This document shows, piece after piece, positions 1 through 31,045 of a stretch of 64,000 nt of DNA. The stretch spans positions 23,454-87,453 of the forward strand of contig CAYTAR010000004.1 in the NCBI GenBank assembly GCA_964436015.1. Reading direction: 5' to 3'. The DNA comes from an uncultured Candidatus Saccharibacteria bacterium (lineage in GTDB: Bacteria > Patescibacteriota > Minisyncoccia > Phycocordibacterales > GCA-2401445). Positions within the stretch are counted from its first letter, which is position 1, and each line of letters opens with the position of its first letter. The notes beneath the pieces were generated by a model that saw nothing but the letters and a program-made list of their open reading frames with translations, had not been told where the DNA came from and made no database searches. A program made the translations under genes and the position numbers.

Positions 1-1017
1 GCCTTCCTTTTCCTTTACCTGACTCAAGGCTTCTTTTACTGTCTCTTTTGTATCAGCATACAACGTATTTTTATACTGACACGAACGAGCTATCATGCAA
101 AAATCAACAAAAAAGCCTGCGGTCTTTTGTCCACCGACTGACTCATGCGAACCATTATTAAATACAATATGAGTTAGGTTCTTTGGTTGTATTTGACCAA
201 TTGTCGCCATTCCCCCGAGATGCATCAAAGCCGCACCATCACCATCAAAACAGTACACTTTCCTTTTGGAATTATTCATCGCGATTCCTAGAGCGATTTG
301 AGATGCGTGCCCCATAGAACCTATAGTAAGAAAATCACGCTTATGCCCCATTTCGCTCGCCTTACGAATTTCAAAAAGCTCACGAGACATTTTACCCGTA
401 GTTGAAACAACCACAGCATCTTCCTCGAGCATATTTATAACCGATGCAATTGCTTCTTCTCGAGTAAGAGAATACACACCGTTCGACGCCTTCTCTGTTT
501 TTTCTGATTTAAACAAACCTTTGCGTACAACAAGAGCATGAGGAGTGCCCCTTGCGCGAACTGAAGCGACCGCGCTAATCAACTCTTGCTTTGCTACCTC
601 CTCGTCAGCAGATAGAACAGTGTAAGGTATACCCATGGCATCAAGTAATGGTGTAGTAACCTCGCCCATTGTAATATGTTGGGGCTCATCACTTACTCCT
701 GGCTCTCCTCTCCATCCAATTAATAATAAAGCTGGAATCTGATAGACTTTTTGATCTAAAAGTGAAATGAGAGGGTTTACCGCATTCCCCAAACCAGAAT
801 TCTGCATATATATAAGAGGAATATTTCCAGTTGTTAAATGATATCCCGTCGCAAGACCGAGTGCCGTTCCTTCATTTACAGAAATAACGTGACTTGTTGG
901 TGGCAACGATACATCTATGTATTCACAAAACTCCTTTAACAATGAATCTGGAACACCAGTAAAAAAAGTGACTTCTTGACTTACCAAATAATCCAAAAAT
1001 TGCTTAGGTGATATCAT
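1..1017 (-). CDS. ppd: phosphonopyruvate decarboxylase (thiamine-diphosphate enzyme), 3-prime end truncated by the window edge
   Basis: Own reverse-complement translation from ATG at 1017: MISPKQFLDYLVSQEVTFFTGVPDSLLKEF...CFDGDGAALMHLGG (TPP-binding GDG motif). Lies 11 nt downstream of the PepM fusion gene. Not on the ORF track because it runs off the window. Confidence 0.75.
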   Translation of the reverse strand, partial: MISPKQFLDYLVSQEVTFFTGVPDSLLKEFCEYIDVSLPPTSHVISVNEGTALGLATGYHLTTGNIPLIYMQNSGLGNAVNPLISLLDQKVYQIPALLLIGWRGEPGVSDEPQHITMGEVTTPLLDAMGIPYTVLSADEEVAKQELISAVASVRARGTPHALVVRKGLFKSEKTEKASNGVYSLTREEAIASVINMLEEDAVVVSTTGKMSRELFEIRKASEMGHKRDFLTIGSMGHASQIALGIAMNNSKRKVYCFDGDGAALMHLGGMATIGQIQPKNLTHIVFNNGSHESVGGQKTAGFFVDFCMIARSCQYKNTLYADTKETVKEALSQVKEKEG

Positions 1018-1028
1018 CGTTTAAATTT

Positions 1029-2372
1029 TTATATTTTTTTGCCTCCGTTGTTTTCTATTAAATTCAAAATTTCTTTAATAGACATACAGTACTTACTAGA
1101 GGCTTCTTTAGATCGCTCCTTTTCAAGTATCAAACGCGCAGTGTTAACCATTGCAGGATACGCACTTCGTAGTAAGTGATTAGCGTAAATTACAATACTA
1201 AAGCCCATTTTATATAAATTTTTCTCTGTAAGGTGGTCATACGTCGTAGGAACTGCTACCAGTGGTATATCTGCACCAAATTCTTTATACCTTTTACAAA
1301 ATTCCTCAATTTTCTCGGTAGTTTTATCCTTGCTATGAATCATTATTGCGTCAGCTCCGGCTTCAATATACGCTTTAGCACGGCGTATGGCATCGTCTAC
1401 ATCCTTTCCCAGAATAAAGCTTTCTATACGTGCAATTATCATAAAATCCTCTGAGACCCTCGCTTTTACTCCAGCCGAAATCTTCTCACAAAAATTTTTA
1501 ACACTATCAGACTCCTGCTTCACAGATGTACCATAAAGAGAATTCCTTTTCACACCCTTTTTATCTTCAATGATTACTGCAGAGACACCTAATCTTTCAA
1601 GGGTTTTTACTGTGTAAGGAAAGTGTTCAACCAGCCCCCCAGTATCACCGTCATAAATAACAGGTTTAGTGGTTACTTCAAGGATATCATGGAGCGTACT
1701 AACTCGCGAAGTAAGATCAACAAGTTCAATATCAGGTTTTCCTTTCATAGTAGAATCAGTAAGACTACTAAGCCACATAAAATCAAACTCCTGGGTACTT
1801 CCTTTCTTATTTACCTGTATATGCTCTGCAATCAAAGCTGAAAGTCCGCTGTGGGCCTCAATCCCCCTTACTGTATTTTTGGAATCCAAAAGACGACGAA
1901 GCCTCTTAATACGTAGGGTTGGGGTTGTACCTATTTCCTTCAAGGCTTGATTTAGTTTCGTGGATGATATTCCTTCTGTGTATTTAGGCTCAATGAGTTT
2001 CCCACCCCATTGTTTTAACAATTCAATTACTTTTGCCCGTACGTTTTTTTGAATTCCATGTTTCCAATCATCACCATGTACGACAAAATCAGGCTTTAAT
2101 TTTTTCAGATTTTGAGAATAATCTAATGTCTCTTGGGGGACAACTTCACTGACACCAACAATGTGAGTTACTATTTCTTTTCGTTGTTCATATGAAAGAA
2201 ATGGTAATCGCTTATAACTAGCAATAGCCTTGTCAGTTAACAAACCAATAACGACTTTTCCGTATTTTCTCCCTTCATTGATAATATTTAAATGACCAGG
2301 ATGAATAAGATCAGCACTCATACCGATATACACCAATTTCTCACCTTTAATTTCTTTAGACATATAAATCAA
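1029..2372 (-). CDS. pepM: bifunctional nucleotidyl(cytidylyl)transferase / phosphoenolpyruvate phosphomutase
   Basis: N-terminal domain has the HxGH cytidylyltransferase motif (IHPGH). C-terminal ICL/PEP-mutase fold carries the PepM-diagnostic EDKxxxxxNS ([15 protein letters not shown]). 447 aa. Confidence 0.8.
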
Positions 2373-2471
2373 ATATTTTCAACCAATAAAATACACAATA
2401 TTCAGAAGTTAAGGATAGCACTTGAGTACCCTTTGTGCAATAAAGAGCCTAACTACTACACTTAGCCACAC

Positions 2472-3254
2472 CTAAAGAGTCATTTTTGACTTAATAAACT
2501 TCACATAGTCAATTGCTTTCGTCATCCTGATTTTAAACTGTGTAAATGAAATTGAACGGTCCACTTGAATACGTTTAATCCTATAGGGGTTGGTGTGTGG
2601 CTTAACCAAGCCCTCAGTAATCACACAACCGCCTGCAAATAATGTTTTCACTACCTGCTCTACATCCCTATTCACCCTACCTGCAGGATACGCAACAAAC
2701 TGCGGTGTGTATCCTGTATGCCTCTGAATGTCATCTTTTGAACGCACGAGCTCATTTGTGAGAGCTTCCACTGATAATTCGGTAAAATTCGTATGGCTCT
2801 CTCCATGCACTTCAAACGTAACCCATCCTTCCTGAGCAACCCGCTCAATACCCTCCCACGCGGGCCGAGGGAGATTCCCAAGTTTTTCCATTGGAAAGAA
2901 GTTAGTGGTGAGAAACACGGTAGCTGGAATACGATACTTCGCAAGTAGTGGAGCAACAACAGAAATAGTATCCTCATACCCATCATCAAATGTCACCGCA
3001 ACGCTTTTATGAGGCAACTCTTTTTCACCCCGAGTATACGCCACCACATCTGCAAAAGATACCGGGTTCATATTCTCCTTAATATATTTCAAGTGTCGCT
3101 CAAACTGTAGAGGTGTTACTCCATACTTCCACTGACTATTTTCAACTGAATGGTACATTAAAACTGAGACTTCTTTACCCCGCACAAAAATACGCACAAG
3201 TGTACGAACACACCATGCAAAGGAATATACTATTGTTTTGAAATACAATCGCAT
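2472..3254 (-). CDS. polysaccharide deacetylase (NodB / CE4 family), N-terminal TM
   Basis: TFDDGYED and LMYHSV motifs; RIPATVFL. Confidence 0.7.
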   Translation of the reverse strand: MRLYFKTIVYSFAWCVRTLVRIFVRGKEVSVLMYHSVENSQWKYGVTPLQFERHLKYIKENMNPVSFADVVAYTRGEKELPHKSVAVTFDDGYEDTISVVAPLLAKYRIPATVFLTTNFFPMEKLGNLPRPAWEGIERVAQEGWVTFEVHGESHTNFTELSVEALTNELVRSKDDIQRHTGYTPQFVAYPAGRVNRDVEQVVKTLFAGGCVITEGLVKPHTNPYRIKRIQVDRSISFTQFKIRMTKAIDYVKFIKSKMTL

Positions 3255-3850
3255 ACATCAACTATTATTCGCTCTTCGTCCTTTGTTCCTCGTATATACA
3301 AAGTCGGAACTACTCTTTCGGTAAGGCACTCTAATATTACCCTATGAACTTCAAACACCACCTCAGTAAAACGGTTCTGATATTCAGTACCCATAAATGC
3401 TCGCATTCCCTTTCCTCGTTTTGCGAGTCTACTCAACACTTCTTCTTTTGGGAGATCAAATATGACTCTTACGCTCGGGAGAGGAGCGTGACTCAATAAC
3501 TTAGATACAATACTAGCAGACGGAGTGCGCTCAAATAAACTCAAACAGTGTTGGAGCATTCCTTCCTCCACCAACACATGCACTCGTGCACGGGACGCCC
3601 CCATCCATTCTCCAATCCTATACATAAACACCCTCAATTTCCACCACACAAGGTAAATGCCTCCCCATTCGCGCAGGATGATTCGTAGTGATAAAAAGAA
3701 AAAGCGAGGAAATTTAAATACAAACAAACATACGTATACACCCCTCACTAAAAACGAAGTTGGGTGCATGTGTGCGAAACCGCACGAACGAAACGTTCGT
3801 GCTAAAGTGCTTTTCCCTGAACCAGGAGGACCATATGTTTCCAGTACCAT
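3230..3850 (-). CDS. P-loop NTPase / small kinase-like protein, possibly disrupted
   Basis: Walker A GPPGSGKST at the N-terminus. The middle ~60 aa is low-complexity and unlike a natural protein, so a frameshift or pseudogene is possible. Confidence 0.35.
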   Translation of the reverse strand: MVLETYGPPGSGKSTLARTFRSCGFAHMHPTSFLVRGVYVCLFVFKFPRFFFLSLRIILREWGGIYLVWWKLRVFMYRIGEWMGASRARVHVLVEEGMLQHCLSLFERTPSASIVSKLLSHAPLPSVRVIFDLPKEEVLSRLAKRGKGMRAFMGTEYQNRFTEVVFEVHRVILECLTERVVPTLYIRGTKDEERIIVDVCDCISKQ

Positions 3851-4632
3851 TAGCCCTTGAAAGTTACTTGATAAGATTCAGAAAAAAAGCGAGTAATAAC
3901 ATTCATATTCATCCATCCGAGTAACACGTAGAGTGCTCTATCAGCAAATGCGGAACGCAGTCCAGGGAATACAAACGTTACCGGACGAACAGAAGTTATT
4001 ACGAACCCTTCCTTATGGAGCAAGCTACATAATTCCTTATCAGATACCTGAAGCGCGTGAAAATCCTTCACTGCTCTTTTTTTATTCCATGGTCTATTAT
4101 ACTGAGGTGTCTTAGTGATAATTGAACCGTGAGATTGAGTTGCTGTTACTTCACGAATCTTTTTCACCAATGCTTCTTTATCAGAAAAATATTCTATCGC
4201 TCGTGAAGAAAAAAACACTGTGGCTTTCTTTTGAGGTATATATTCAAGGAAATCAGATACGGTAAATGTGACATTCTCAGAGCCTGATAAGTTTTCTTTC
4301 GCGAGCACAATCATCTCTTCTGAAATATCAACCAACCCATACTCCATATCAGGAAATTCAGATAAAAACTCTCGAGTCCACGTGCCGGGACCCGGACCCA
4401 ATTCAAGATACACTTTATGAGCGACACTCTTCTTTAACTCAAAGATAAAACGATACACCGCCCGACGGGTCATGTCATACCCCGCTTTTCTCTGCGCAGT
4501 TGAAAACCACCTCTCACGCTCATACTCACCCCTATACGCGCCTGGTATCATGGTGTTGTATATCCCCCGCACATCAGCATTTTTCATTTCCCTATTGTAA
4601 GCGAAAGCGAAAACAGTGGCAATTTTGTACAC
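3850..4632 (-). CDS. class I SAM-dependent methyltransferase
   Basis: Motif I LELGPGPGTWT; 260 aa. Confidence 0.65.
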   Translation of the reverse strand: MYKIATVFAFAYNREMKNADVRGIYNTMIPGAYRGEYERERWFSTAQRKAGYDMTRRAVYRFIFELKKSVAHKVYLELGPGPGTWTREFLSEFPDMEYGLVDISEEMIVLAKENLSGSENVTFTVSDFLEYIPQKKATVFFSSRAIEYFSDKEALVKKIREVTATQSHGSIITKTPQYNRPWNKKRAVKDFHALQVSDKELCSLLHKEGFVITSVRPVTFVFPGLRSAFADRALYVLLGWMNMNVITRFFSESYQVTFKG

Positions 4633-4706
4633 AGTTTATCACCTCTCAATTATAGACAGATTGAGCAGGAAATTTAAACTTTAATTATTATTATTATTTT
4701 CTAAAA

Positions 4707-6473
4707 ATGCCATGGCGTACTACAAACAATTATTCTCTCTCATTTTTTTTCTTTATTTTTTTATTTACACCGACAAACGTATTTGCTCAAAATTCTCACT
4801 CATCAGAGTTTGATGGTGTAAATGACTATTTATTTGTAAATGACAACCCTTCACTATCGATAACAGGTGATTTAACTGCAGAATTATGGGTAAATTTTAA
4901 TTCATTCAACGAGAATGATCAGGGGATTTTAATCTCAAAGTACGGAGGTGGATCAAACGAGAGAGCATACCAATTTGGATACTTTAAAAACACATCTGAT
5001 GGAAAGCAATACTTTGAAAGTAGAATCTCCGATGACGGAACAGGACCCAATACGAGCGTTGTTACTCTTGAATATACCCTGGCGACTAGCACATGGTACC
5101 ACATTGCTTTTGTATATAAAGCGGCAACTGGAACTATTGATGTTTACGTTGCAACCACAAGTGCGCTGAGCCACACTTTTGCCGGCACAATGTCTGGCCA
5201 TAGAAATTCCATAAAAGATAGTTCTTCTCAGTTTAGAGTTGCCTCATCCCACGGAGCAGGAAGTATAGTTTACTTTGATGGTTTCATTGATGAAGTAAGA
5301 ATATGGAGTGATATTAGAACCACCTCTGAAATTTATTCAAACTTCAAAACAGAATTAAATGGGGATGAATCAAATTTAGCTGGATACTGGAAATTAAATA
5401 ATTCATTGAATGATAGCACATCAAATGGGAACAATCTCTCAAACAACGGCGGCGTAACATTCACGGCTTTTAAACCCTTTCCTATCCCACCCTCTATTGC
5501 GATCGACCCATCGCCAAGTATTGCATCAACATCAGTTGCTACATCGACTGAAATAACATGGTCTCCAGGAACTGGGTTAACGCAACAAGCTGTATACTTT
5601 GGAACTTCATCAGATCCAGGATTGAATGAATTCAAAGGTATATACAGTAGCACAACCACTTTCTACGACCCAGGAATACTTCAAGCATCAACAACATATT
5701 ACTGGCGGATTGACACAGCAAATTCGGAAGCGACGACTACTGGAAATTTATGGAATTTTTCAACTATTGCTGAACCAGAAAATTCACATTCTATTGGACT
5801 CAACGGAATAGATGACTACCTTTCTGTAGCAGACAGTTCATCTCTATCCATAACAGGCGACTTGACCATTGAATTCTGGGCAAAATTTGACTCATTCAAC
5901 ATTGATGATCAAGGTATACTTGTTTCTAAATGGGGTGATTATGGAGGAGGAAACAATCAACGTGCATACCAATTTGGTTATTATAAAACATCTGGGGGTA
6001 CAGGATATTTTTATCCTCTTACTTCCGCGGATGGAACAAATGTTACTTCAGCAACAATTCAATATGATTTAGCAACGAGCACTTGGTATCACTTAGCATT
6101 CATCTATACTGCCGCAAGTGGTACAGTTAGTGTATATGTTGCTACTACATCAGATTCAAGCCACGCGTTAGTAGGAACTTCATCGGGATTTACCACCTCA
6201 CTTAAAGATACTGTTTCTGAATTCCAGATTGGCTCTTCTGATGGGTCTGGCAATGCAGTATATCTTGATGGAATAATTGATGAAGTAAGAGTGTGGTCTA
6301 AAACTAAGAGTAAATTAGAATTAGACACCGATTACACCACAGAATTAACAGGCTCTGAAACAAATCTTGAAGCATATTGGAACTTCAACAACACATTGAA
6401 TGATGCAACAATTAACGGGAACAATCTGACAAATAACAATGGTGCAACGTTTGTAACATCCACACCATTCTAA
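4707..6473 (+). CDS. secreted protein with two tandem LamG-like (concanavalin A-like lectin/glucanase) domains separated by an Fn3-like module
   Basis: Signal peptide (…NVFA|QN). Two ~230-aa internal repeats (DGVNDYLFV…TWYHIAFVY…IDEVRIW versus GIDDYLSV…TWYHLAFIY…IDEVRVW). YYWRID Fn3-like segment between them. Confidence 0.6.
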   Translation: MPWRTTNNYSLSFFFFIFLFTPTNVFAQNSHSSEFDGVNDYLFVNDNPSLSITGDLTAELWVNFNSFNENDQGILISKYGGGSNERAYQFGYFKNTSDGKQYFESRISDDGTGPNTSVVTLEYTLATSTWYHIAFVYKAATGTIDVYVATTSALSHTFAGTMSGHRNSIKDSSSQFRVASSHGAGSIVYFDGFIDEVRIWSDIRTTSEIYSNFKTELNGDESNLAGYWKLNNSLNDSTSNGNNLSNNGGVTFTAFKPFPIPPSIAIDPSPSIASTSVATSTEITWSPGTGLTQQAVYFGTSSDPGLNEFKGIYSSTTTFYDPGILQASTTYYWRIDTANSEATTTGNLWNFSTIAEPENSHSIGLNGIDDYLSVADSSSLSITGDLTIEFWAKFDSFNIDDQGILVSKWGDYGGGNNQRAYQFGYYKTSGGTGYFYPLTSADGTNVTSATIQYDLATSTWYHLAFIYTAASGTVSVYVATTSDSSHALVGTSSGFTTSLKDTVSEFQIGSSDGSGNAVYLDGIIDEVRVWSKTKSKLELDTDYTTELTGSETNLEAYWNFNNTLNDATINGNNLTNNNGATFVTSTPF

Positions 6474-6486
6474 TTTACTTAACCAA

Positions 6487-6535
6487 ACATAAAAAACCAT
6501 CCCAGAGAGTAAGGGATGGTTTTTTATGTTTGGTT
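6487..6535. terminator. bidirectional rho-independent terminator between convergent genes
   Basis: aaaaaccatccc-agagagtaa-gggatggtttttt, with an extended outer palindrome. Confidence 0.5.
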
Positions 6536-7193
6536 AGAAAAACTTTGTCGGAACTTCAACTATCCCTTTCTCTTTATCTTCATACGTCGTGAACAATTTT
6601 GGCTCACCAGTTTTTTTAAGTACATAAATAATCTCATACGCGAGCCCAGGAAACTTCAAAGGATGAAAGGCGATTTTTGTTTTCACCAAACGAAATGATA
6701 AACCGACCTCATTCTCTATAGTAAACCCAACCCTATCCGCAAGAGTGCGCACATTGTACCGAGTAAAACTCTGAAAATGTTCCACCCATTTCGCTTTGCA
6801 CACACGGTGCTTAAACTTGTGAAAAAATATATTGAGCACATTTTCCCAATAATAATTAGGATTAGGACTTGAAAATACGAGATACCCATTCGGCTTTAAC
6901 ACTCGGTGAAGCTCACTCATGAGCTGTATTGGGTTCGCTACATGCGCAAGGACACACCCCATCGTAACTGCATCAAAGAAACCATCTTCATACGGAATAT
7001 GTCCCGTATTCAAATCTACTCTTTTTACCTCCTTATAACCGACGGGATGATTGTCTGCAACTATATCAATTCCATATATTTCTCCGTGTAAATAGGTGCT
7101 CGGATTTTGAGCATACCCGACATCAAGCACTTTCTGTGCATCCGGATATACCGCATATAAGGTATCAGCAATAACATTCCCTTTAGTTTTCAT
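6534..7193 (-). CDS. SAM-dependent methyltransferase (type 11-like)
   Basis: VLDVGYAQNP…GIDI, a Rossmann-type methyltransferase fold. Confidence 0.6.
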   Translation of the reverse strand: MKTKGNVIADTLYAVYPDAQKVLDVGYAQNPSTYLHGEIYGIDIVADNHPVGYKEVKRVDLNTGHIPYEDGFFDAVTMGCVLAHVANPIQLMSELHRVLKPNGYLVFSSPNPNYYWENVLNIFFHKFKHRVCKAKWVEHFQSFTRYNVRTLADRVGFTIENEVGLSFRLVKTKIAFHPLKFPGLAYEIIYVLKKTGEPKLFTTYEDKEKGIVEVPTKFF

Positions 7194-7205
7194 AATAGAA
7201 TTCTT

Positions 7206-7820
7206 CTATTTTAACACAACAAAAAAATGGTGGTACTGGTACGCAAAAGGTACAAAATGTTTTTTTACCACTCCAAACTGTGATAGTACGCGTACAAACC
7301 TATTCACTGTATACCCCTTCTTACCAAGTTCCCAGTAGTGCTCACCATTAAACTCATGCTCTTTCGGATGAGGAATTCGCAATGCGAAAGAAAGCTCTCT
7401 CAGAAGTGGTATTTTGAAAAGAAACTTAATTGGGTGACTAAAGTGCGGAACACTTATCACCACTCCCTTTTTAGCAACACGCACGATTTCAGAGAGAGCT
7501 TTTTCAACCTTTTCAAACGGGATATGCTCCAACACTTCGCAAACACATACCACATCAAACGTATTGTCTTCAAATGGAAGGGATGTAACATCCCCCACAA
7601 CATCTGGGTGCAGATCTTCTGCCACATCAAGTGAAGTGTACGTGATATCCGTATTATTTTTTATATACGATCCAAATACTTTATCCCCCACACCTACTTC
7701 AAGAACTGACTCGGGGGCAAACGAAAGAACCTCCTTTAACTGGTGGTAGTAACTTACAAAACGACCAACGTGTCCGTATTTCTTAAAATTGTAGTGCTGT
7801 TTATCTACTTGTTTCTCCAT
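7206..7820 (-). CDS. SAM-dependent methyltransferase (type 11-like)
   Basis: VLEVGVGDKVFG…FDVVCVCEVLEHIP. Start likely MEKQVDKQ at 7820; the longer track ORF overlaps the upstream GT. Confidence 0.6.
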   Translation of the reverse strand: MEKQVDKQHYNFKKYGHVGRFVSYYHQLKEVLSFAPESVLEVGVGDKVFGSYIKNNTDITYTSLDVAEDLHPDVVGDVTSLPFEDNTFDVVCVCEVLEHIPFEKVEKALSEIVRVAKKGVVISVPHFSHPIKFLFKIPLLRELSFALRIPHPKEHEFNGEHYWELGKKGYTVNRFVRVLSQFGVVKKHFVPFAYQYHHFFVVLK

Positions 7821-9286: not shown

Positions 9287-10115
9287 ATACAGAACTCAGA
9301 ATATCAATATCCTTATTACTTGCAAGTAGGAGCTCAATATTTTTATCACGAAGTGCGGTGAGCAACTCTACTCCCGATGTGTCTCCCACAAGTGATGTGT
9401 ATAACCCCGAAAAAGCACTAAAGTCCTTGAGAAAGCAATTTCCACCGGCTCCTCGGCCACTTTTATGCACTGGTGACATGTGGCTATTTCCAATACGAGG
9501 GTCTGCGGAAAGTGCCTGTGCTACTGCTTCCCATTCAACCCCAAGACTATTTGCCGTATCATACACCATGTTCATAAATATCACTTTCAAAAAAAGGAAA
9601 TTATTTCCCGCGTACTTAATCAATTCTGCACTTCTTGCTGTAGTGACGAGTGTGTACGGGGCATACGGTAATACATCCATAATCGCCTCAGCGCGCTCTC
9701 TAAATTCAGCATTATCAATTGCCATCCCGACAATGTTTCTATCTGGGTGACTTGCATCATAAGACGCATTTGATTCCGTTAGGAATTCCGGAGAATGAAA
9801 CAAAAATAATTCAGGGTGTGCATCCTGCAGTTTTTCGGTTGTCTTGGGAAGTATGGTTGATTTAATAACTACACTTGCTCCACGCCCCGCGAGCGACAAT
9901 ACTCCTTCCACAATACTCGCATCAGAACCGTCAGGTGTGGTGGGGGTAGGTACCGCAACGAACACCAGATCACAATGCTTTATTCTGTCTTTATTATCAC
10001 GATACTCAGCATCAAGAGAATAACGTATTACTTCAAAACCACGATTCTCAAAATCATCGGCATAATTTTTACCGACATACCCTTGACCAATGAATCCGAT
10101 TTTTTTAAATTTCAT
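9246..10115 (-). CDS. UDP-glucose/GDP-mannose dehydrogenase family protein (short form)
   Basis: N-terminal GFIGQGYVG Rossmann motif; catalytic-Cys motif GGNCFLKD. Start likely MKFKKIGF at 10115. Confidence 0.55.
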   Translation of the reverse strand: MKFKKIGFIGQGYVGKNYADDFENRGFEVIRYSLDAEYRDNKDRIKHCDLVFVAVPTPTTPDGSDASIVEGVLSLAGRGASVVIKSTILPKTTEKLQDAHPELFLFHSPEFLTESNASYDASHPDRNIVGMAIDNAEFRERAEAIMDVLPYAPYTLVTTARSAELIKYAGNNFLFLKVIFMNMVYDTANSLGVEWEAVAQALSADPRIGNSHMSPVHKSGRGAGGNCFLKDFSAFSGLYTSLVGDTSGVELLTALRDKNIELLLASNKDIDILSSVYGQDFIRQKRRHI

Positions 10116-10146
10116 ATGAAATACTTGTCTCTCAATAGTACCCGAT

Positions 10147-11298
10147 TTATAGACTCTCTGCACGTGCACTTCTCCACGATTCCTGCATACGCATAATAGT
10201 TTGCTCAATAGTTCCGAGCTTCATGAGTGCTTCTCTTCCATTTTGAATATACATATTTCTTTTTTCTTCATCCTGTAAGACCTGCACCACACCCTCCGCA
10301 AAACTATTCATATCATGAAGTGGCACTACCACACCACTCACCCCACTTTGAACGACCTCTCCTGCACATCCAACATCTGTCATAACCACTGGAAGTCTGC
10401 TTGCGAGCGCCTCAATCACCACCCTACCCCACCCTTCATAATTTGAAGACAACGCATACACATGAGCAGTTTTGTACATACTTGCCACATCGTCTGTCCA
10501 ATCATACATAAATACTTTCTCTCGTATTCTCAGACGCTCAATCTGAGAAGTAATATTCTTTTTTTCTGACCCACTACCAACAAGCACCAAACACGCTTCA
10601 GGGATGGAAACGAGCACTCGCGCAAACGCATCAATCAACAATGCGACATTTTTTTGTGGAACCATGCGTCCAACCCAAAGAACGAAAGGTCCGCTCATTC
10701 CCGTCTTCTCTTGCAGTCCTAACTTGGGGACCGCGTGTACATACTCTTCAACAGGAGTTACTACAGGAAAACATACAATTTTTTCCTTTTTTACTCCCAA
10801 AGAAATAAGTTTCTTTTCAATTCGCTTTGATACAACACGCACCTGTGTTGCGCGGGCTAGTACGAACAGCCCAATATTGTAGCGTATTCGGTTAAGGAGA
10901 GATTCTTTACGCCAATCAGGTGTACTGAAAAAATCACCGTGCTCTTGAACCTGTAGCGGAAGCCTGCATACCCTTGCGAGAATTAACCCCAATAACCCTG
11001 CTTCAAACGGATCTTGTGTACTCACCACCCAATCACGACGTTTGCTCTTCAAAATGAGTGAATATGAAATAAAAAAAGCACGCAGTAGATGAAAGAGCGG
11101 AATTCGGGCATTAGTGGGATATACATGCACGGAGTCGCCAATATGAGTAACATGGTTTTTAAGTCGTGCATGAGAAAAAACTACGATATGTTGCTCAAAC
11201 TCACTTCCTGCATACGCAACCTGCCTTCGTGCAGATCGCGAATATGATATGAACAAATCTTTATCACTCCCTATCGTAAGTATCGGAATTCTACTCAT
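10147..11298 (-). CDS. glycosyltransferase family 4
   Basis: EGWGRVVIEALASRLPVVMTDVGCAGEVV. Confidence 0.7.
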   Translation of the reverse strand: MSRIPILTIGSDKDLFISYSRSARRQVAYAGSEFEQHIVVFSHARLKNHVTHIGDSVHVYPTNARIPLFHLLRAFFISYSLILKSKRRDWVVSTQDPFEAGLLGLILARVCRLPLQVQEHGDFFSTPDWRKESLLNRIRYNIGLFVLARATQVRVVSKRIEKKLISLGVKKEKIVCFPVVTPVEEYVHAVPKLGLQEKTGMSGPFVLWVGRMVPQKNVALLIDAFARVLVSIPEACLVLVGSGSEKKNITSQIERLRIREKVFMYDWTDDVASMYKTAHVYALSSNYEGWGRVVIEALASRLPVVMTDVGCAGEVVQSGVSGVVVPLHDMNSFAEGVVQVLQDEEKRNMYIQNGREALMKLGTIEQTIMRMQESWRSARAESL

Positions 11299-12293
11299 AG
11301 TAATTTACAATATTCGGACACAATATCTTCCCACGTGTGAATCTTTTTAAAATTCTGCGCTTTTGATGCGTACGATTCATAGTATGCAGGATATGAAAGC
11401 GACCTGATTGCTTCAGCAAGCGCACTCACATCAAACGGATCAACACACACACCGACATCTCCTAGCTCCTCACACAAACCACTATCCTTTGTGAGGATAA
11501 ATGGTTTTCCGTAACGAAGTCCTTCAAGGATAATATTCGGCGCAACCTCCGAAAATGAAGGAACTACGATGACCCCTGCTTGTGCAATTTTCTCTTCCAG
11601 CCTATCAGGAGGAAATGTTCCAGTAATAAGCTCAATGCCTCCTTTCGTCTGTTTTACCTCATTAAATGCCTGTTGTAGTAACTCAATGTTTTTTAGCACA
11701 ATCGGTCTCCCCACTGCAAGAAATGTTTTTACTTCACCTTGCGTATGTAGAGTATTCTTTTTCTCACCATAGTAATTCTCAACAATGGCACATTTCTCCT
11801 CGGGAATTCCGTACGCTGTTTGTGTAAAACGCTTTTGCCACTCGGTGGTAAAAGCAACCACATCAGCATGGCGATATACTCTAGTAATTAAAAAACGAAC
11901 GCACTTCTCTTTAAAAGACAATGCTCTTTTTTCTAAGTAGAATTCACTCAAATGTACTTGTTGCTTTGTTCGTTCAACCCACATTTCCCACAAAAAATCA
12001 CCCCCCACACGAACTACGATTTTTTTCCGCATCACTTTTGCAGCACAGAGCGCAGGAAATCCTACACTAAAAGTATCGAGTGCAAGAACACCTTGTGTGC
12101 CAATGAGCTTAAAACAAGTCTTTAAGAAAAAGAATACATGTCGCACTCCTGTTGGAAGACGTTTCTCAAGCGAAAACCGCGCAATACGCACAGAATGCCC
12201 CATCTCATGCGCAGTATGTGTAATCATTGCCGCATACTTAGCGGGACCTCCTATATCTGGCGGAAAAATTCCTGTCGCAATTACAAATTTCAT
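11295..12293 (-). CDS. glycosyltransferase (GT-B, GT4-like)
   Basis: Architecture and operon context; start codon overlaps the neighbouring GT (ATGA). Confidence 0.5.
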   Translation of the reverse strand: MKFVIATGIFPPDIGGPAKYAAMITHTAHEMGHSVRIARFSLEKRLPTGVRHVFFFLKTCFKLIGTQGVLALDTFSVGFPALCAAKVMRKKIVVRVGGDFLWEMWVERTKQQVHLSEFYLEKRALSFKEKCVRFLITRVYRHADVVAFTTEWQKRFTQTAYGIPEEKCAIVENYYGEKKNTLHTQGEVKTFLAVGRPIVLKNIELLQQAFNEVKQTKGGIELITGTFPPDRLEEKIAQAGVIVVPSFSEVAPNIILEGLRYGKPFILTKDSGLCEELGDVGVCVDPFDVSALAEAIRSLSYPAYYESYASKAQNFKKIHTWEDIVSEYCKLL

Positions 12294-13459
12294 ACTTTTT
12301 TATGTAACGATTCACAGAGGGTTAAAAACTGTCCCGAAAGCGTGTCCCATACATACTTCTCCATAACCATTTTTTGTCCATTCTGAGCAATCATTCTCGC
12401 CTGTTCTGGAATATTTGCAAGCTCGCTCACTGCATGAACTAGCGCGCTTGGATTATCCGGTTCAATCAGTATTCCAGTCTTCCTATCTTGGAGAAAATCA
12501 ACAATACCCCCAACTGGAGTACCTATCACGGGCAACCCACATGCAAGTGCCTCAACAAAAGAATTACCGAAACCCTCACTTCGTGAAAGTCTTACAAAAA
12601 TATCGCTTGCGTGCAAATACTGGGGTAATTCATCCTGAGTAACACTTGGCACAAAATGTACACGGTCAATTACGGCAAGCTCTTTTGCGAGGGCATTAAG
12701 CGAACCACCAAGTGGTCCACTTCCGACTATAAGGACATGAACTTTTTTATTCAACAGAGGCAGAGTGCGAATCAGTGTATCAAGTCCGTTTTTATACACC
12801 AGTCGTGACGTGCTTACTAGTACATACGCACTCGTCGGTATGTGTAGTTTTTGTCGCAACGCATTTCGCCCAACCTCTGATGCCCGAGCAGTGAATACTG
12901 ATATATCTACTCCGTTAGGGAGTAGTGTAATAGGTGCCTTTGTTCCACTTTGTTTTGCACGGTGTATAAGATACTTACTTATTGCGGTAATATGGGTTGC
13001 ACGACGAATCGGAAAATAGTGCATTGGCTGTACAATCAAACGATACAAAAGCTCATTTCCAAACACGTATCGCTTTAGGTATCGCTCATCGTCCCCTTCT
13101 TGCAAGGTTACCACAAACTCTTTTTTGTTACGGATAGTATGAAAGAGTGCTCCTGCAATACTTCCGAAACTAGCCATAATACCCCACACACAATCATAGG
13201 TAGTCTTTCGCGAACGGACCAATGCGACAAAAAAACCAGTTACTGGAAATACATACTTATCAATTGGATGCCCGATCCCAACCCGACGAACATTGATACT
13301 CCCCACACGCTCTCGTTTTGGAAGTGTCCGTGAATATCTCGGGGTCAACATATCAAACGCAATCCGCTCAGGCGGAATACGCTTCGTGAGCTCATGCACG
13401 GCTATCTCCGCCCCGCCAATGTGAGGCAAATAGTCTGTACTAAAAATAAGGATTTTCAT
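12290..13459 (-). CDS. glycosyltransferase family 4
   Basis: SRSEGFGNSFVEALACGLPVIGTPVGG. Confidence 0.7.
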   Translation of the reverse strand: MKILIFSTDYLPHIGGAEIAVHELTKRIPPERIAFDMLTPRYSRTLPKRERVGSINVRRVGIGHPIDKYVFPVTGFFVALVRSRKTTYDCVWGIMASFGSIAGALFHTIRNKKEFVVTLQEGDDERYLKRYVFGNELLYRLIVQPMHYFPIRRATHITAISKYLIHRAKQSGTKAPITLLPNGVDISVFTARASEVGRNALRQKLHIPTSAYVLVSTSRLVYKNGLDTLIRTLPLLNKKVHVLIVGSGPLGGSLNALAKELAVIDRVHFVPSVTQDELPQYLHASDIFVRLSRSEGFGNSFVEALACGLPVIGTPVGGIVDFLQDRKTGILIEPDNPSALVHAVSELANIPEQARMIAQNGQKMVMEKYVWDTLSGQFLTLCESLHKKV

Positions 13460-14994
13460 TCTTCCTCTAGTATATCGTACTCGTCTGCTTCGCGTATCCC
13501 CTGCTTACGGTACTGATACAGTGCGTACACCGGCATGAAACCAAGGGGAATAAGCGCGAGTAACCACCAGACTATACCATCCCCATTCTGAGGTGTCATT
13601 CCTGAAGAAACCTGCGCCACTAAGGTGCTTGTATTGATGCTTGTATCAACTATTGGCAGAAAATCCTCTTCCACATCCTCAACTGTATCCTTCTTGTTTT
13701 TATCATTGTCCTCATTCAAAACTGCGACCGTACGTTCATCTTCCGGGAGAGTGATAATTTTCTCACTAACTACACGACTACTCGGTATGTCTTGTGGTGT
13801 TGTTTTTTGATATGACTGAGGATTCACGGTGGACGCTTGTAGTGCAGGCACAGCATAACGCGCAATCTCTGTACCAAGCGTATTACGCAGAAGTACCGTG
13901 TCAGAAGGACTAAACACCAACCCAGTTGCGTGAGTACCGAACGGTGCCGTACTTTTTGGAGCAAGCATAGTCCCGCTCGGAAAAACAAACACACCATTTT
14001 GGGTTGAAATACTCCACGAAGTAATATCAATCGCGAGTGTTGAGTCATTACGCACTGACACGTATCCATCACTTCCTGTTTTGACGTCTATCAATGTAAG
14101 AGTAGGAGTTACTACTGTAACAGTTACATAGTCTGAAGCGGTAAACTCACCGGACGAAACAGATAACACTGCAGTATACACCCCAGCGTGCCTATATCTA
14201 TGGAGTACATTTTTCCCCTCCAAAAAAGTACCGTCACCGAAATTCCAGGTATACCGTGCAATAGAAAGAGGTTCACCCTTAAGTCCAAACCCCTCTCCGC
14301 GAAACTCAATATCAGCACCAACGAACGCGGTTCGGTCAATGCCTGCGTTTGCTTCTATTTTCTTTTGACCATCATGACGCAGTGGTACAGACCCGCTATC
14401 TTGAGTAGTAATATCCGCCTCCTCATCTGTGCTCGAAGATGTATTCTCTTGCGTATACTGAACTATTGAGGCGCCAGAATTACTATTTTCTTTTCCCGGA
14501 GTTGGATTAAAAGCTCCCCACGAACCATTCACCAGCTGGAGCGAAAGCCCGTCATTTTTCGCACCCCACTCTGAGGTATAAGTAACAGAATCAACAATAG
14601 GAGCATCTTTCTTCCCTGATTTCATGGCAATCGTCTCGCTATCAGTCAATGCAAAAACAGACCTAAGTAGCAACCCGTTAAATGAAGTGAAATAATTCTT
14701 AAATGCGGTAGGGTCGCGTGAAATTATTGCGTACCCATTTGGAGGAATTACCCCCTCCCCTTCAACAACCGCGGTAATTCCATGATCAACTTCATTTTCA
14801 TAGAAAATCCACTCAGTGAGATTAATAGTATCCCCACTTATATTTTGCACCTCTATCCATTCGCTTCCAGATGTAGAATCCGTTTTAAACGGATCGTACA
14901 TAATTTCAGTAATTTGAACACTCGCACTCATCATAGCGGGATACAGTATCCCGCTCAAAAGTAATAAAATTAAAAATACATTACTCCTCTCCAT
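13456..14994 (-). CDS. membrane-anchored surface protein: lamin-tail domain – PKD domain – second LTD-like domain – S/T-rich linker – C-terminal TM
   Basis: Signal peptide. LTD motif ITEIMYDP…SEWIEVQNISGDTINLTEWIF. PKD motif YTWNFGDGT…HRYRHAGVYTAVLSV. C-terminal WWLLALIPLGFMPVYALY. Confidence 0.65.
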   Translation of the reverse strand: MERSNVFLILLLLSGILYPAMMSASVQITEIMYDPFKTDSTSGSEWIEVQNISGDTINLTEWIFYENEVDHGITAVVEGEGVIPPNGYAIISRDPTAFKNYFTSFNGLLLRSVFALTDSETIAMKSGKKDAPIVDSVTYTSEWGAKNDGLSLQLVNGSWGAFNPTPGKENSNSGASIVQYTQENTSSSTDEEADITTQDSGSVPLRHDGQKKIEANAGIDRTAFVGADIEFRGEGFGLKGEPLSIARYTWNFGDGTFLEGKNVLHRYRHAGVYTAVLSVSSGEFTASDYVTVTVVTPTLTLIDVKTGSDGYVSVRNDSTLAIDITSWSISTQNGVFVFPSGTMLAPKSTAPFGTHATGLVFSPSDTVLLRNTLGTEIARYAVPALQASTVNPQSYQKTTPQDIPSSRVVSEKIITLPEDERTVAVLNEDNDKNKKDTVEDVEEDFLPIVDTSINTSTLVAQVSSGMTPQNGDGIVWWLLALIPLGFMPVYALYQYRKQGIREADEYDILEEE

Positions 14995-16762
14995 TAATTA
15001 TTTCTTTGAGCCTACGTTCAGGAATTTCCTTTACGGTAGTTTCTTCGTCTCTTTTGACTTTTGGAGTCACTGAGTCCTCAGAGTTCTCCGTCTCGGCAGA
15101 GGCAGTTCCCGGCTGTTTCAAAAGTGAAGCGAGTGCATTTCTTAATTCATTTCTCCGCTCATCACTCGGGCCTTTTGTGTCGCGAGGAGCTGTTTTGTCT
15201 TTCCGAGAGAGAGATGTAAGCGAAATAGGAGTAGCAGATTCCTGAGGAGAAGGTACGTGGTGTTCCTCCGAGGGTTTGATATTCTGCAAGTCCAGTGGTG
15301 TTTCCGGCACACGAGGGGTATGATGCTTTTTAGGAGGGTTTTCTGTACGCACTGGTGATTCACGACGAATTTCTTGCAATGGACGTCGTTGCGCATCGTG
15401 CTGATTTGGGCGCTTGTGTGAATCACTACCATTTCTCTGTTCGGTGTGTTGAACTTTCTTCGGGTCGGGTATCGGAGCGAGTGTTTTTCGTACCGCCTCT
15501 TCAACAAACGCGCGAGGTTGTGCAAAATTCTTCCGAGAAGTCTCAATTATTTTTTCTTTCTGACTTACAGAGGGGAGTGGAATCGGTCCAATAGTAGTCG
15601 CTGAAAAGGGCTGAGATCCAACTCCGTCTATCATGAGTTTCAAATAAATTTGAGTAAATCCAAGATTAACCAAGTCTTCAGCGGTAAACACGGGTGCAAA
15701 TTCTTTTTCAAGTGTTTCCGCATCATACGCCCCGACTCTAAATGTAATCATCGTTCCCACGTTCCCAAACACCGCAGCCCGCACCTCCTCAGACATTTGT
15801 TCAATATACTGATGAGCAATGGTGAGATTCAACTTGTACTTTCTTGCCTCAGACAAAATATCCGCAAACGACTCGTTAGCAAAAGACTGGAATTCGTCCA
15901 CATACAAATAAAAATTTGGAAGATTCTTCTGCAAATGATCCTGATTAACATCAGCACGAGACATTGCAGATAGGTATATTTTAGTAATAAGCATGGAGCC
16001 GATAAGGTTTGCGTTTGCCTCACCAACCCGCCCCTTTGAAAGGTTAATAATAATAATCTTCTTTTCATCCATCATTCGTCGCAAGTCAAAAGAAGACTTT
16101 GGCTGACCAATAATATTTCTAATTAAGGGATTAGAAGTAAACTGTCCAACCTTATTTTGAATTGCAGGAGTTGCCTCTGCGGTAAAACGATCGGTATAGT
16201 TTGCAAACTCATCAACCCAAAACGAACGGACCGATGCATCAGTGATGTGCTCAACTACTTTTTTCCGGTACAGCTTGTCAGAGAGCATGCGGTTGACTGA
16301 AAGCAAAGTTGCATCGGGATACTCAAGAAGTGCAAGTAGTGTATTGGTTAAAATGTACTCCATTCGAGCACTCCACGCATCCGCCCAAATCTTCTTAAAC
16401 GTGGACATGAGCCCAGAGACCACCAAGTGTCGTTTGTCATACCCAACATCTTCCATTACGTTAAATGAAATTGGATGCTCTAAATCAAACGGGGCAAAGT
16501 ACATCACGTCGTTCTTTCTCTCTTCTGGAACGTAGTCCAAAAGCAATTCGGCAGTCTTACCGTGCGGGTCAATAAATGCCATACCCTCCCCGTTTTTCAT
16601 ATCTTGAACCGCCATATTTTCAAGCAGTGTGGACTTACCCATGCCTGTTTTTCCAATCACATATACATGCTTCGTGCGATCCTTCGCTTTAATTCCAAAA
16701 GGTATGCGCTTATTCCGCGCATCGGTCTCCGCAAAATAGGTAATTCGCTCTTCGTTATACAT
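14981..16762 (-). CDS. FtsK/HerA-superfamily ATPase, VirD4/TraD (type IV coupling protein)-like, with a ~170-aa disordered C-terminal tail
   Basis: Walker A HVYVIGKTGMGKST. FIDPHG and YLYVDEFQSF (Walker B-like) motifs. LTIAHQYIEQM. C-terminal P/E/K/R-rich low-complexity region. Overlaps the LTD-PKD gene by 14 nt. Confidence 0.55.
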   Translation of the reverse strand: MYNEERITYFAETDARNKRIPFGIKAKDRTKHVYVIGKTGMGKSTLLENMAVQDMKNGEGMAFIDPHGKTAELLLDYVPEERKNDVMYFAPFDLEHPISFNVMEDVGYDKRHLVVSGLMSTFKKIWADAWSARMEYILTNTLLALLEYPDATLLSVNRMLSDKLYRKKVVEHITDASVRSFWVDEFANYTDRFTAEATPAIQNKVGQFTSNPLIRNIIGQPKSSFDLRRMMDEKKIIIINLSKGRVGEANANLIGSMLITKIYLSAMSRADVNQDHLQKNLPNFYLYVDEFQSFANESFADILSEARKYKLNLTIAHQYIEQMSEEVRAAVFGNVGTMITFRVGAYDAETLEKEFAPVFTAEDLVNLGFTQIYLKLMIDGVGSQPFSATTIGPIPLPSVSQKEKIIETSRKNFAQPRAFVEEAVRKTLAPIPDPKKVQHTEQRNGSDSHKRPNQHDAQRRPLQEIRRESPVRTENPPKKHHTPRVPETPLDLQNIKPSEEHHVPSPQESATPISLTSLSRKDKTAPRDTKGPSDERRNELRNALASLLKQPGTASAETENSEDSVTPKVKRDEETTVKEIPERRLKEIINGEE

Positions 16763-16803
16763 TGTTGTTAGTATATCATTTCGTTCTCAGAGTGAACGTG
16801 CAT

Positions 16804-16835
16804 AAAACCCCCGAGAGTAGAACTCTCGGGGGTTT
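16804..16835. terminator. rho-independent terminator hairpin
   Basis: aaaaccccc-gagagtagaactctc-gggggttt. Confidence 0.5.
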
Positions 16836-16854
16836 GATTAAGACGGGGAACGCG

Positions 16855-17011: not shown

Positions 17012-17114
17012 ATAGTATGAACTCCTAATTACTGAGGTTTGAGAAATGAGCAGAACACAACTAGACACACCACACGCATGCCTAAAACCACTCTGATTTA
17101 CAGTATAGCCAACA

Positions 17115-18951: not shown

Positions 18952-19014
18952 TGCGGGTTTTATTTATCTTCAATGTAGAAACTACCCCCCCCAATGTCTC
19001 AAACTCTATCCAAA

Positions 19015-19692: not shown

Positions 19693-19693
19693 A

Positions 19694-31039: not shown

Positions 31040-31045
31040 TTTGAA

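Follow-up and report, generated by a model that had tools for sequence, protein, structure and literature searches.

The left part (positions 1–16762) of the window, i.e. the whole 64,000-nt stretch of DNA that was analysed, is best read as a chromosomal locus for an envelope glycan in an ultra-small Candidatus Paceibacterota (CPR) bacterium, composed of two layers, of which the tail carries a phosphonate-decoration cassette (probability of about two in three). The locus is a fresh example of an already known system type rather than a new system: the preliminary description had not recognised the gene combination among described systems, but fused PEP mutase (PepM)-cytidylyltransferases, 2-hydroxyethylphosphonate (HEP) pathways and phosphonoglycans have all been published. 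The top matches come from Paceibacterota, Kaiserbacteria and Nomurabacteria.

The first layer, the core (7801–16762), comprises a coupling-protein-like ATPase, an LTD-PKD-LTD protein, three GT4 glycosyltransferases, a truncated UDP-glucose-dehydrogenase-like (UGDH-like) protein, GtrA and a further GT4. The second layer, the tail (1–7800), is lineage-variable, has a lower GC content (0.394 vs 0.430 in the core) and carries the cytidylyltransferase-PEP-mutase fusion and phosphonopyruvate decarboxylase (Ppd). The left window edge cuts through the cluster, which extends past it. Every gene listed in the preliminary description was recovered in its place by Pfam and NCBIfam profile matches. The features of the locus are:

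1–1017, minus strand: Ppd, first 339 aa, C-terminus past the left edge (Pfam TPP_enzyme_N/C, TIGR03297)
1029–2363, minus strand: bifunctional cytidylyltransferase-PEP mutase, Fom1-type fusion (PF01467 + PF13714, TIGR02320)
2472–3254, minus strand: membrane-anchored polysaccharide deacetylase (CE4), Polysacc_deac_1 (PF01522, 93 bits)
3230–3850, minus strand: P-loop, dNK/thymidylate-kinase-like protein, 206 aa, paired with MT1 (Walker A GPPGSGKST)
3850–4632, minus strand: class-I SAM methyltransferase MT1, opening the second minus-strand unit (Methyltransf_31/25/12/11)
4707–6473, plus strand: secreted protein with two Laminin_G_3 (concanavalin-like) domains, LamG (PF13385, two stretches)
6483–6533, no strand assigned: bidirectional intrinsic terminator, perfect 21-bp stem flanked by an A-run and a T-run (strand folding)
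6534–7193, minus strand: class-I SAM methyltransferase MT2 (Methyltransf_11/23)
7206–7910, minus strand: class-I SAM methyltransferase MT3 (Methyltransf_11)
7801–8856, minus strand: GT4 glycosyltransferase GT4a, conserved core (Glycos_transf_1)
8822–9286, minus strand: GtrA-family membrane protein (PF04138, 93 bits)
9246–10208, minus strand: truncated nucleotide-sugar dehydrogenase-like protein (UDPG_MGDP_dh_N + central domain)
10147–11298, minus strand: GT4b (Pfam)
11295–12293, minus strand: GT4c (Pfam)
12290–13459, minus strand: GT4d (Pfam)
13456–14994, minus strand: LTD-PKD-LTD protein (LTD in two stretches + PKD)
14981–16762, minus strand: soluble T4SS-coupling-protein/HerA-superfamily ATPase with a disordered C-terminal tail (T4SS-DNA_transf, TrwB_AAD_bind, DUF87)

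Phosphonate cassette and its probable product

Both cassette enzymes exceed their NCBIfam cut-offs: Ppd scored 457 bits with TIGR03297 (cut-off 312.5) and the PepM fusion 380 bits with TIGR02320 (cut-off 319.6), with the Ppm motif readable directly in its sequence. The N-terminal domain of the fusion shares 60% identity (136 residues, E 3e-55) with the cytidylyltransferase (CyTase) domain of Fom1 (PDB 5X3D), an enzyme of the fosfomycin pathway of Streptomyces wedmorensis that has the same architecture (PF01467 N-terminal, PF13714 C-terminal). According to PMC6697681, which cites Cho 2017 for it, Fom1 cytidylylates HEP to CMP-HEP. PF01467-Ppm fusions constitute 23.6% of all Ppm, and overall about 60% of Ppm are fused to a nucleotidyltransferase (PMC6697681).

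The window is without an alcohol dehydrogenase (ADH) gene; this gene is known from the contigs of CPR relatives, where an Fe-ADH was found directly after Ppd in four of four contexts (L001, L030, L031 and L113). No aminotransferase follows Ppd in the 10 kb read in these four relatives, the collinear one included. Because Fe-ADH follows Ppd in all four and, in the collinear closest relative, is succeeded by GT2, GT4, Wzx and PMT_2 genes, the phosphonate is probably HEP rather than 2-aminoethylphosphonate (AEP), with CMP-HEP as the likely donor for decorating a glycan.

An AEP-type phosphonoglycan, with an AEP transaminase just left of the window, CMP-AEP as the donor and some of the methyltransferases acting in N-methylation, is unlikely. 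AEP is the commonest branch, accounting for 56% of neighbourhoods (PhpC/HEP neighbourhoods account for 8.5%; PMC8942020), and in Bacteroidota and Rhodothermia (L005, L008, L011, L017) Ppd and a class-V aminotransferase (Aminotran_5, AEP branch) come after members of the same fusion family that are 60% identical; therefore the fusion alone does not fix HEP. What speaks against the AEP branch is the Fe-ADH arrangement of the four CPR relatives, as well as the occurrence of MT3 homologues in loci whose 10 kb covered by the analysis showed no PepM (L029, 51% identity, and L089, 49%). Since the phosphonate is probably HEP, the N-methylation of AEP suggested in the preliminary description is moot.

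In the proposed HEP route, the PepM domain would convert PEP into phosphonopyruvate, Ppd would turn this into phosphonoacetaldehyde, an Fe-ADH presumed to lie just outside the window would reduce the latter to HEP, and the Fom1-like CyTase domain would yield CMP-HEP, from which the phosphonyl group may be moved onto a glycan or glycoconjugate hydroxyl. The acceptor glycan would be assembled by GT4/GT2 enzymes, receive O-methyl groups from the methyltransferases and perhaps a modification from MT1 with the P-loop kinase-like module, be partly de-N-acetylated by the CE4 enzyme and be flipped by Wzx/GtrA for surface display.

Several known systems resemble this scheme. In contrast to the fosfomycin pathway, a Fom3-type radical-SAM methylase and other fosfomycin genes were not found in the window or the orthologous cluster, and in the present glycan-assembly setting CMP-HEP would serve as a donor instead of being a passing intermediate. 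The isolation of HEP phosphonoglycans has been reported (Yu 2014, J Bacteriol 196:1768, as cited in PMC8942020 and PMC13576164). For those of Glycomyces sp., a PepM-Ppd-PhpC-type route, like the one proposed here, is reported to end with HEP esterified to an exopolysaccharide; the hosts are Actinobacteria and the products are chemically proven. Phosphonyl-tailoring (Pnt) clusters with PntC cytidylyltransferases and the Bacteroides fragilis polysaccharide B cluster also place Ppm, Ppd and nucleotidyl activation beside cell-wall glycan genes (Rice et al. 2019, PMC6697681), but these belong to the AEP branch (AEPT), their characterized enzymes are PF12804 LicC-like (PMC6697681), and LicD-like transferases lie nearby, while none was found in the locus here.

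Glycan setting and the variable tail

The placement of the phosphonate genes within a glycan-assembly cluster, as proposed in the preliminary description, is borne out by the relatives. The closest of them (JBBDJV010000020) shows a collinear arrangement between the Mur ligase and Ppd, with 44–87% amino acid identity across the block (81% for the PepM fusion). Past Ppd, where a self-contained small-molecule phosphonate cluster would have spoken against the proposal, it continues with Fe-ADH, a 184-aa protein (u184), GT2, GT4, MT21, a Wzx flippase, a methyltransferase, PMT_2 and GT2. Ppd and MT2 share 64% and 87% identity, respectively, with their L001 orthologues. Two more CPR lineages (L031 and L113) have the PepM-Ppd-ADH cassette downstream of GT4b/GT4a orthologues, and four CPR contexts in all place it inside glycan clusters; in a Pelagibacter locus (L022) the Fe-ADH is followed by a 443-aa ORF without a Pfam match.

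It is decidedly unlikely that the cassette is independent of the glycan genes, making phosphonolipid head groups or else a phosphonate that is free or secreted, and standing here by chance in a variable island. Such independence would agree with the separate transcription unit and lower GC of the tail, with the CDP-alcohol phosphatidyltransferase-like gene after ADH in L030, and with the fact that no phosphonyl-to-glycan transferase (LicD, TagF-like or CDP-alcohol type) was recognised in the window or the orthologous cluster; a TagF-like gene adjoins PepM in three other CPR clusters. However, the cassette shares one unit, with overlapping junctions, with MT1, the P-loop gene and the deacetylase, the orthologous cassette continues gapless into GT2, GT4, Wzx and PMT_2, the glycan-cluster setting is repeated in the four CPR contexts, and the Pfam scan of the window and the closest relative's cluster revealed no small-molecule tailoring enzymes. 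Patchy, strain-level PepM within islands of surface glycosylation genes was also described for Prochlorococcus SB and SAR11 and their proposed phosphonoglycoproteins, for which surface interactions, rather than the storage of phosphorus, were put forward as the role (Acker et al. 2022, PMC8931226); these organisms differ in living free in the marine plankton, and MpnS (methylphosphonate) is often present in them.

The genes had been taken for one near-contiguous minus-strand block. Most minus-strand junctions are indeed short or overlapping (−41 to +31 nt), but a single transcription unit does not stand, as the 21-bp hairpin (dG of −31.7 and −32.4 kcal/mol on the two strands, with z of −9.4 and −10.3; 0/200 shuffles as stable) sits between the convergent LamG and MT2 genes. 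MT1 begins the second unit behind a 74-nt divergent spacer.

Two tail genes, encoding the deacetylase (62% identity) and the LamG protein (70%; 808 aa there), have orthologues solely in JBBDJV. The former weakly resembles PgaB/IcaB, under NCBIfam cut-offs, while the latter has an N-terminal signal peptide, as read from its sequence, and no paralogue within the window. From comparison with orthologues, the true start of MT3 is probably an internal Met near 7820, giving about 204 aa; the protein weakly matches the MftM oligosaccharide methyltransferase.

MT1, whose orthologues were found in L001 (72%), L112 (39%) and L031 (32%), shares 1 nt with the P-loop gene, and the MT-P-loop gene pair is also present in L031 and L112. 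The P-loop protein has weak dNK/Tmk matches, and its family (189 representatives) includes the fusions P-loop-GT4, MT-P-loop, P-loop-MT-GT4 and P-loop-GT4-GtrA, which would tie the gene to glycan tailoring. The kinase of WbdD is not known to be a Walker-A dNK-like protein. WbdD, a kinase-methyltransferase chain terminator of E. coli O9a, works with GT4 mannosyltransferases (PMC3482155), and by analogy the locus may be likened to it in coupling a kinase-like module to a SAM methyltransferase (MT-P-loop is also found fused) within a GT4-based glycan cluster.

The conserved ATPase-LTD-GT4 core

Throughout the phylum the core is retained as an operon, in which methyltransferases accompany the last GT4, and it adjoins variable tails. 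The array recurs in dozens of Paceibacterota contigs, usually after Mur, RsmI and DUF4015. At least three of the four core GT4 genes occur in the same order in 25 of 40 related loci (those that extend 7 kb or more beyond the ATPase on its downstream side), and a GT4d-like gene immediately follows the ATPase in 30 of 48 loci, with none adjacent in the other 18. GT4b, GT4c and GT4d are consecutive (10147–13459) and joined by 4-nt overlaps; GT4a has orthologues in many Paceibacterota loci (32–49% identity), and GtrA was found across many related loci. UGDH-like orthologues (47–56% identical) occupy the same position in several loci, and comparison with them indicates that this ORF probably starts at an internal Met (10115; 289 aa). 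The protein contains a GGNCFLKD motif, is without the C-terminal domain (Pfam) and scored 137 bits with TIGR03026 (cut-off 190). The shared gene order also takes in unrelated genes, e.g. RsmI, and synteny alone is therefore weak evidence of shared function.

The LTD-PKD-LTD surface protein carries a signal peptide, contains linkers rich in Ser/Thr and is anchored by a transmembrane segment at its C-terminus. Its homologue directly follows the ATPase in 15 of 48 metagenome loci. Of the 20 loci in which an LTD homologue is present (19 being metagenome loci, taken by a looser distance window than in the previous count), 18 have an ATPase-to-LTD junction of at most 45 nt, among them overlaps as long as 20 nt and one that is apparently 122 nt long.

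The ATPase exceeds the Pfam cut-offs for T4SS-DNA_transf and TrwB_AAD_bind, its NCBIfam TraD/CD1115/CedD scores being far under the cut-offs, and its AF2 model (pLDDT 85–93, residues 50–280) matches Cag-beta, DotL and TrwB, then HerA. It thus shares Pfam domains and fold with T4SS coupling proteins (TrwB, VirD4/Cag-beta, DotL) and HerA, but appears from its sequence to be without their N-terminal transmembrane anchor. No T4SS partner genes were present among the scanned ORFs and, unlike mobile-element genes, the ATPase is near-universal in Paceibacterota (60–84% identity).

The ATPase, LTD protein and GT4 block, which the preliminary description placed in one system with the phosphonate genes, are not specific partners of these; they turned out to be a Paceibacterota-wide conserved array with variable tails. 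One integrated new machine, in which the ATPase, LTD-PKD, LamG, glycosyltransferases and phosphonate genes jointly make, export and bind a phosphonoglycan, is very unlikely. The junctions from the ATPase through GT4 overlap in the window, tight ATPase-LTD-GT4 junctions occur in many loci, and the Ser/Thr-rich linkers could be glycosylated; against this, the ATPase-(LTD)-GT4 array carries many different tails, the 18 loci noted above have no adjacent GT4d-like gene, LamG and the deacetylase are confined to two genomes, the strong terminator parts the core from the phosphonate unit, and unrelated RsmI and Mur share the same conserved order. In the two-layered envelope-glycan locus, it is the conserved ATPase-LTD-GT4 operon that constitutes the less explained part.

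Two layers of the locus

ORF listings and domain scans confirmed every gene that the preliminary description had placed in the first 16,762 nucleotides of the window. Gene junctions within this block are short or overlapping, and its content, from the left edge, is as follows.

Genes and signals of the block 1-16762
1-1017, minus strand: phosphonopyruvate decarboxylase (Ppd), the leftmost ORF, continuing past the window edge (TIGR03297, 457 bits; cut-off 312.5)
1029-2363, minus strand: fusion of a CTP_transf_like domain and PEP mutase (TIGR02320, 380 bits, cut-off 319.6; PF13714, 188 bits)
next: CE4 deacetylase
3230-3850, minus strand: 206-aa Walker-A (P-loop) protein
next: SAM methyltransferase MT1
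next, plus strand: secreted protein with a double Laminin_G_3 domain (LamG)
6483-6533: perfect 21-bp hairpin between the convergent LamG and MT2 genes
beyond LamG, in order: methyltransferases MT2 and MT3, glycosyltransferase GT4a, GtrA
9246-10115: nucleotide-sugar-dehydrogenase-like (UGDH-like) protein
next, in order: glycosyltransferases GT4b, GT4c and GT4d, LTD-PKD-LTD protein, T4SS-coupling-protein/HerA-like ATPase

The hairpin is predicted on either strand (dG about -32 kcal/mol, z about -10) and a 74-nt divergent spacer precedes MT1, the first gene of the second minus-strand unit. Besides LamG, these two features point to at least two minus-strand transcription units (16762-6534, and 4632 onwards past position 1). 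A promoter scan gave matches no more frequently than shuffled sequences (41 vs. 42.6); the position of one minus-strand match upstream of MT1 (4678-4649) is recorded without weight. The GC content is 0.394 in the region 1-7800 and 0.430 in 7801-16762.

The block had been proposed to constitute one new system, and this proposal had to be abandoned: the locus is built of two layers, a core (7801-16762) and a variable tail (1-7800 and beyond the left edge), it comprises at least two minus-strand units, and its ATPase array occurs phylum-wide. The top matches of the PepM (PEP mutase) fusion and of the ATPase are in Candidatus Paceibacterota and allied CPR groups. The remainder of the window is ordinary chromosome, encoding Mur ligases, RsmI, LepA, MurJ, RNase P RNA, tRNAs, GroEL and RNase J. 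Within it, the bacterial class A RNase P RNA (33581-33909, minus strand) scores 107 bits, barely over the gathering score of 100, and the region 29366-33487 (minus strand) encodes the lipid II flippase MurJ and, after it, a protein of 813 aa that ends in TPR repeats and whose N-terminal 640 residues have no Pfam match; in the CPR locus L031, a Wzy_C + TPR protein flanks the phosphonate cluster. The lowest GC content of the window (0.35-0.38) is found at 38001-42000, with a strongly negative GC skew at 38-40 kb.

The conserved ATPase-LTD-GT4 array

The ATPase is 60-84% identical over thousands of Paceibacterota proteins. In individual contexts (optional genes in brackets) the gene order is (Mur, RsmI, DUF4015), ATPase, (LTD protein), GT4d, GT4c, GT4b, (UGDH-like), (GtrA) and GT4a, after which the tails differ. 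An ATPase-alignment scan of metagenome contigs gave 80 loci, whose ORFs were labelled by blastp. In the 48 loci whose downstream sequence reaches 3 kb or more, a GT4d-like gene directly follows the ATPase or LTD gene in 30, and an LTD homologue directly follows the ATPase in 15. Where 7 kb or more is present downstream (40 loci), 25 loci keep three or all four of the core GT4 genes. The ATPase-to-LTD junction does not exceed 45 nt in 18 of 20 loci (among these junctions are overlaps as long as 20 nt and, in one case, an apparent overlap of 122 nt), and in loci lacking the LTD gene the ATPase-to-GT4d gap is at most 54 nt in 13 of 24. Since these junctions are tight across many loci, the ATPase-LTD coupling noted in the preliminary description is genuine and conserved; it is, however, a feature of the phylum-wide array rather than of the phosphonate genes. 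Synteny alone is no proof of a common function, because the conserved order also holds unrelated genes (RsmI, Mur ligases). A literature search found no paper on the ATPase-LTD-GT4 array.

Two details of the array may be added. In the window (7801-21058) and in loci L027-L111 on Paceibacterota metagenome contigs a small ORF between RsmI and DUF4015 is optional, and the ATPase/LTD/first-GT4 junctions often overlap. The UGDH-like protein is devoid of the C-terminal UDP-binding domain and retains a GGNCFLKD (catalytic-Cys-like) motif; its orthologues (47-56% identity) occupy the same position in several Paceibacterota loci (L029, L047, L070, L080 and L106).

The predicted fold and the Pfam domains of the ATPase match type IV secretion coupling proteins (VirD4/TraG/TrwB). 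Its AF2 model, confident for residues 50-280, matches the coupling proteins Cag-beta, DotL and TrwB, and then HerA. Unlike T4SS coupling proteins, it has no N-terminal transmembrane anchor, as read from its sequence; NCBIfam coupling-protein models score it far under their cut-offs, and no T4SS partner genes were found among the ORFs scanned. A role in anti-phage defence (of the HerA type or in a GT4 conflict) was considered and rejected: the ATPase gives weak superfamily matches only (mad8, HerA), its neighbours give none, and it is widely conserved, at the same 60-84% identity.

A phosphonate cassette in the variable tail

The window PEP mutase carries the Ppm-specific motif EDKxxxxxNS as [10 protein letters not shown]. 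Ppd, separated from it by an 11-nt gap, clears the TIGR03297 cut-off even though it is incomplete at the window edge. Fused to the mutase is a nucleotidyl-activation domain (PF01467), 60% identical to the Fom1 cytidylyltransferase (CyTase) structure (PDB 5X3D; E 3e-55), and this domain is thus a putative Fom1-type CyTase activating the phosphonate. Such fusions are common, constituting 23.6% of RefSeq Ppm proteins, and the Fom1 CyTase converts 2-hydroxyethylphosphonate (HEP) into CMP-HEP (PMC6697681). Despite the presence of the fusion, a fosfomycin-type small-molecule pathway was rejected: Pfam assignments in the window block and in the orthologous 21-kb locus include neither a radical-SAM homologue (Fom3, a B12 radical-SAM methylase) nor one of another Fom enzyme (FomD, Fom4).

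The window ends inside Ppd, so the branch-point enzyme (AEPT for 2-aminoethylphosphonate, AEP, or a PhpC-type Fe-ADH for HEP) falls beyond the left edge and the continuation was deduced from relatives. The closest of these, contig JBBDJV010000020, has a PepM that is 81% identical and shares the gene order of the window between the Mur ligase and Ppd, both included (38-87% identity per protein). Beyond Ppd it encodes, in order, an Fe-ADH, a 184-aa protein, GT2, GT4, MT21, a Wzx flippase, MT, PMT_2 and GT2. An Fe-ADH immediately follows Ppd in all four CPR relatives, i.e. in this contig and in loci L030, L031 and L113 (Kaiserbacteria), and in the latter three the Ppd-Fe-ADH pair is located within glycan clusters. 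The fusion alone leaves the choice between HEP and AEP undecided, because members of the fusion family that are 60% identical precede a class-V aminotransferase in Bacteroidota and Rhodothermia; the CPR neighbours favour HEP. Judging from gene order in these CPR relatives, the phosphonate of the locus is probably HEP and not AEP, on which the preliminary description had speculated. A methylphosphonate reading was set aside, since the orthologous cluster has no gene of MpnS/HEPD size. PhpC-type HEP neighbourhoods account for 8.5% of ppm neighbourhoods (PMC8942020), and HEP conjugates were purified from actinomycete exopolysaccharide according to Yu 2014, as cited in PMC8942020 and PMC13576164.

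The same fusion was also seen in more distant organisms. In Pelagibacter (L022, 12387-14833) it is accompanied by Ppd and Fe-ADH, after which the opposite strand encodes a 443-aa protein that matches no Pfam family. Outside Paceibacterota, the PepM fusion has its nearest relatives (59-68% identity; loci L004, L012, L020 and L026) in, among others, DPANN and further archaea (Woesearchaeota, Nanoarchaeota, Promethearchaeum), a distribution which suggests that ultra-small bacteria and archaea have exchanged the cassette.

In four contexts, GT4b/GT4a orthologues have the PepM-Ppd-ADH cassette downstream of them: the window (with the ADH deduced from relatives), JBBDJV010000020, L031 and L113. The variable tail of the locus therefore repeatedly, though optionally, carries the phosphonate genes. 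The 80 ATPase-centred loci are unusable for counting PepM absences, as their flanks extend 10 kb and the ATPase-PepM distance in the window is about 12.6 kb. Glycan assembly and export genes are co-located with the cassette, namely four GT4 genes and GtrA in the window, and GT2, GT4, Wzx and PMT_2 in the collinear orthologue. The idea of a phosphonoglycan put forward earlier stands in outline, but with HEP as the probable phosphonate in place of AEP, without a single system and without LamG, the LTD protein and the ATPase as phosphonate-specific parts. These three proteins are not specific to the phosphonate genes. Phosphonate surface-tailoring clusters of this kind are already described (PMC6697681, PMC8942020 and PMC8931226), and a full-text literature search returned no relevant report of PEP mutase, pepM or phosphonate in Patescibacteria/Parcubacteria.

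Proposed glycan tailoring and transfer of the phosphonate

Orthologues of LamG and of the CE4 deacetylase were found in JBBDJV010000020 only, and no close homologue of MT2 was found outside it. MT3 homologues are also present in related loci in whose 10-kb flanks no PepM was seen, and on the simplest reading MT3 would be a sugar methyltransferase. An exhaustive search gave about 189 cluster representatives of the P-loop protein family, and a word-indexed search found only two close homologues. Fusions within this family join the P-loop domain to glycan enzymes (P-loop-GT4, MT-P-loop, P-loop-MT-GT4 and P-loop-GT4-GtrA), and in L031 and L112, too, an MT gene precedes a P-loop gene, adjoining GT4a orthologues; these fusions and this order argue that MT1 and the P-loop protein are one predicted glycan-tailoring module. 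WbdD of E. coli O9a, a kinase-plus-methyltransferase terminator (PMC3482155), resembles this pair by functional analogy only. In a PDB profile search, the match of the P-loop protein was confined to the Walker A segment, and its single-sequence AF2 model (pLDDT 48) was left out of the fold search. Public annotation covers only the C-terminal 131 aa of this ORF (114 aa in the relative; P0241 and P0242). By tblastn, both genomes conserve the full 206-aa frame, including Walker A (44% identity, 97% of the length aligned), and the N-terminus was probably missed by gene callers.

For the transfer of the activated phosphonate to a glycan, no TagF-like or CDP-alcohol transferase was found in the window, in the collinear relative (L001) or in L027 (tblastn, using as queries the L030 and L031 proteins of the TagF-like and CDP-OH types; Pfam), and the Pfam tables of the window and the orthologous cluster contain no LicD domain. 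In three CPR clusters a TagF-like gene (Glyphos_transf; CDP-glycerol glycerophosphotransferase family) lies immediately beside CyT-PepM (L030, 14268-16163; L031, 8677-9831; L113, 8733-9947), and its product is a natural candidate for a CMP-HEP:glycan phosphonotransferase. The sole hint in the orthologous cluster is the 184-aa protein after the ADH, with a Sulfotransfer_1 match below threshold (E 0.074). Candidates for the window's locus would be this 184-aa protein, the MT1 and P-loop module or a GT-B enzyme.

A far-reaching proposal, which we rate as improbable, is that the ATPase-LTD-GT4 operon represents an undescribed envelope machine, in which the soluble, coupling-protein-like ATPase and the GT4 set would glycosylate and deploy the anchored LTD-PKD surface protein and the tail would supply caps that differ from strain to strain. 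In this locus HEP (possibly methylated) would serve as the cap, added by a new kind of transferase (the MT1 and P-loop module, or the sulfotransferase-like 184-aa protein of the orthologue), and the episymbiotic cell would thereby acquire a coat of phosphonoglycoprotein.

These findings leave the accepted view of phosphonate biosynthesis as it is. The parts worth following are the conserved ATPase-LTD-GT4 operon and the enzyme for transfer of CMP-HEP to the glycan, which is missing from this cluster. If the reading of the tail as a HEP-glycan cluster is true, CPR (Patescibacteria) would join the organisms coated with C-P compounds. The scattering of PepM-fusion relatives over CPR bacteria and DPANN archaea is a hint that ultra-small episymbionts share and exchange phosphonate coats as a trait, and such coats may bear on host attachment, on how cells withstand phosphatases or phages, and on HEP pools in the environment.
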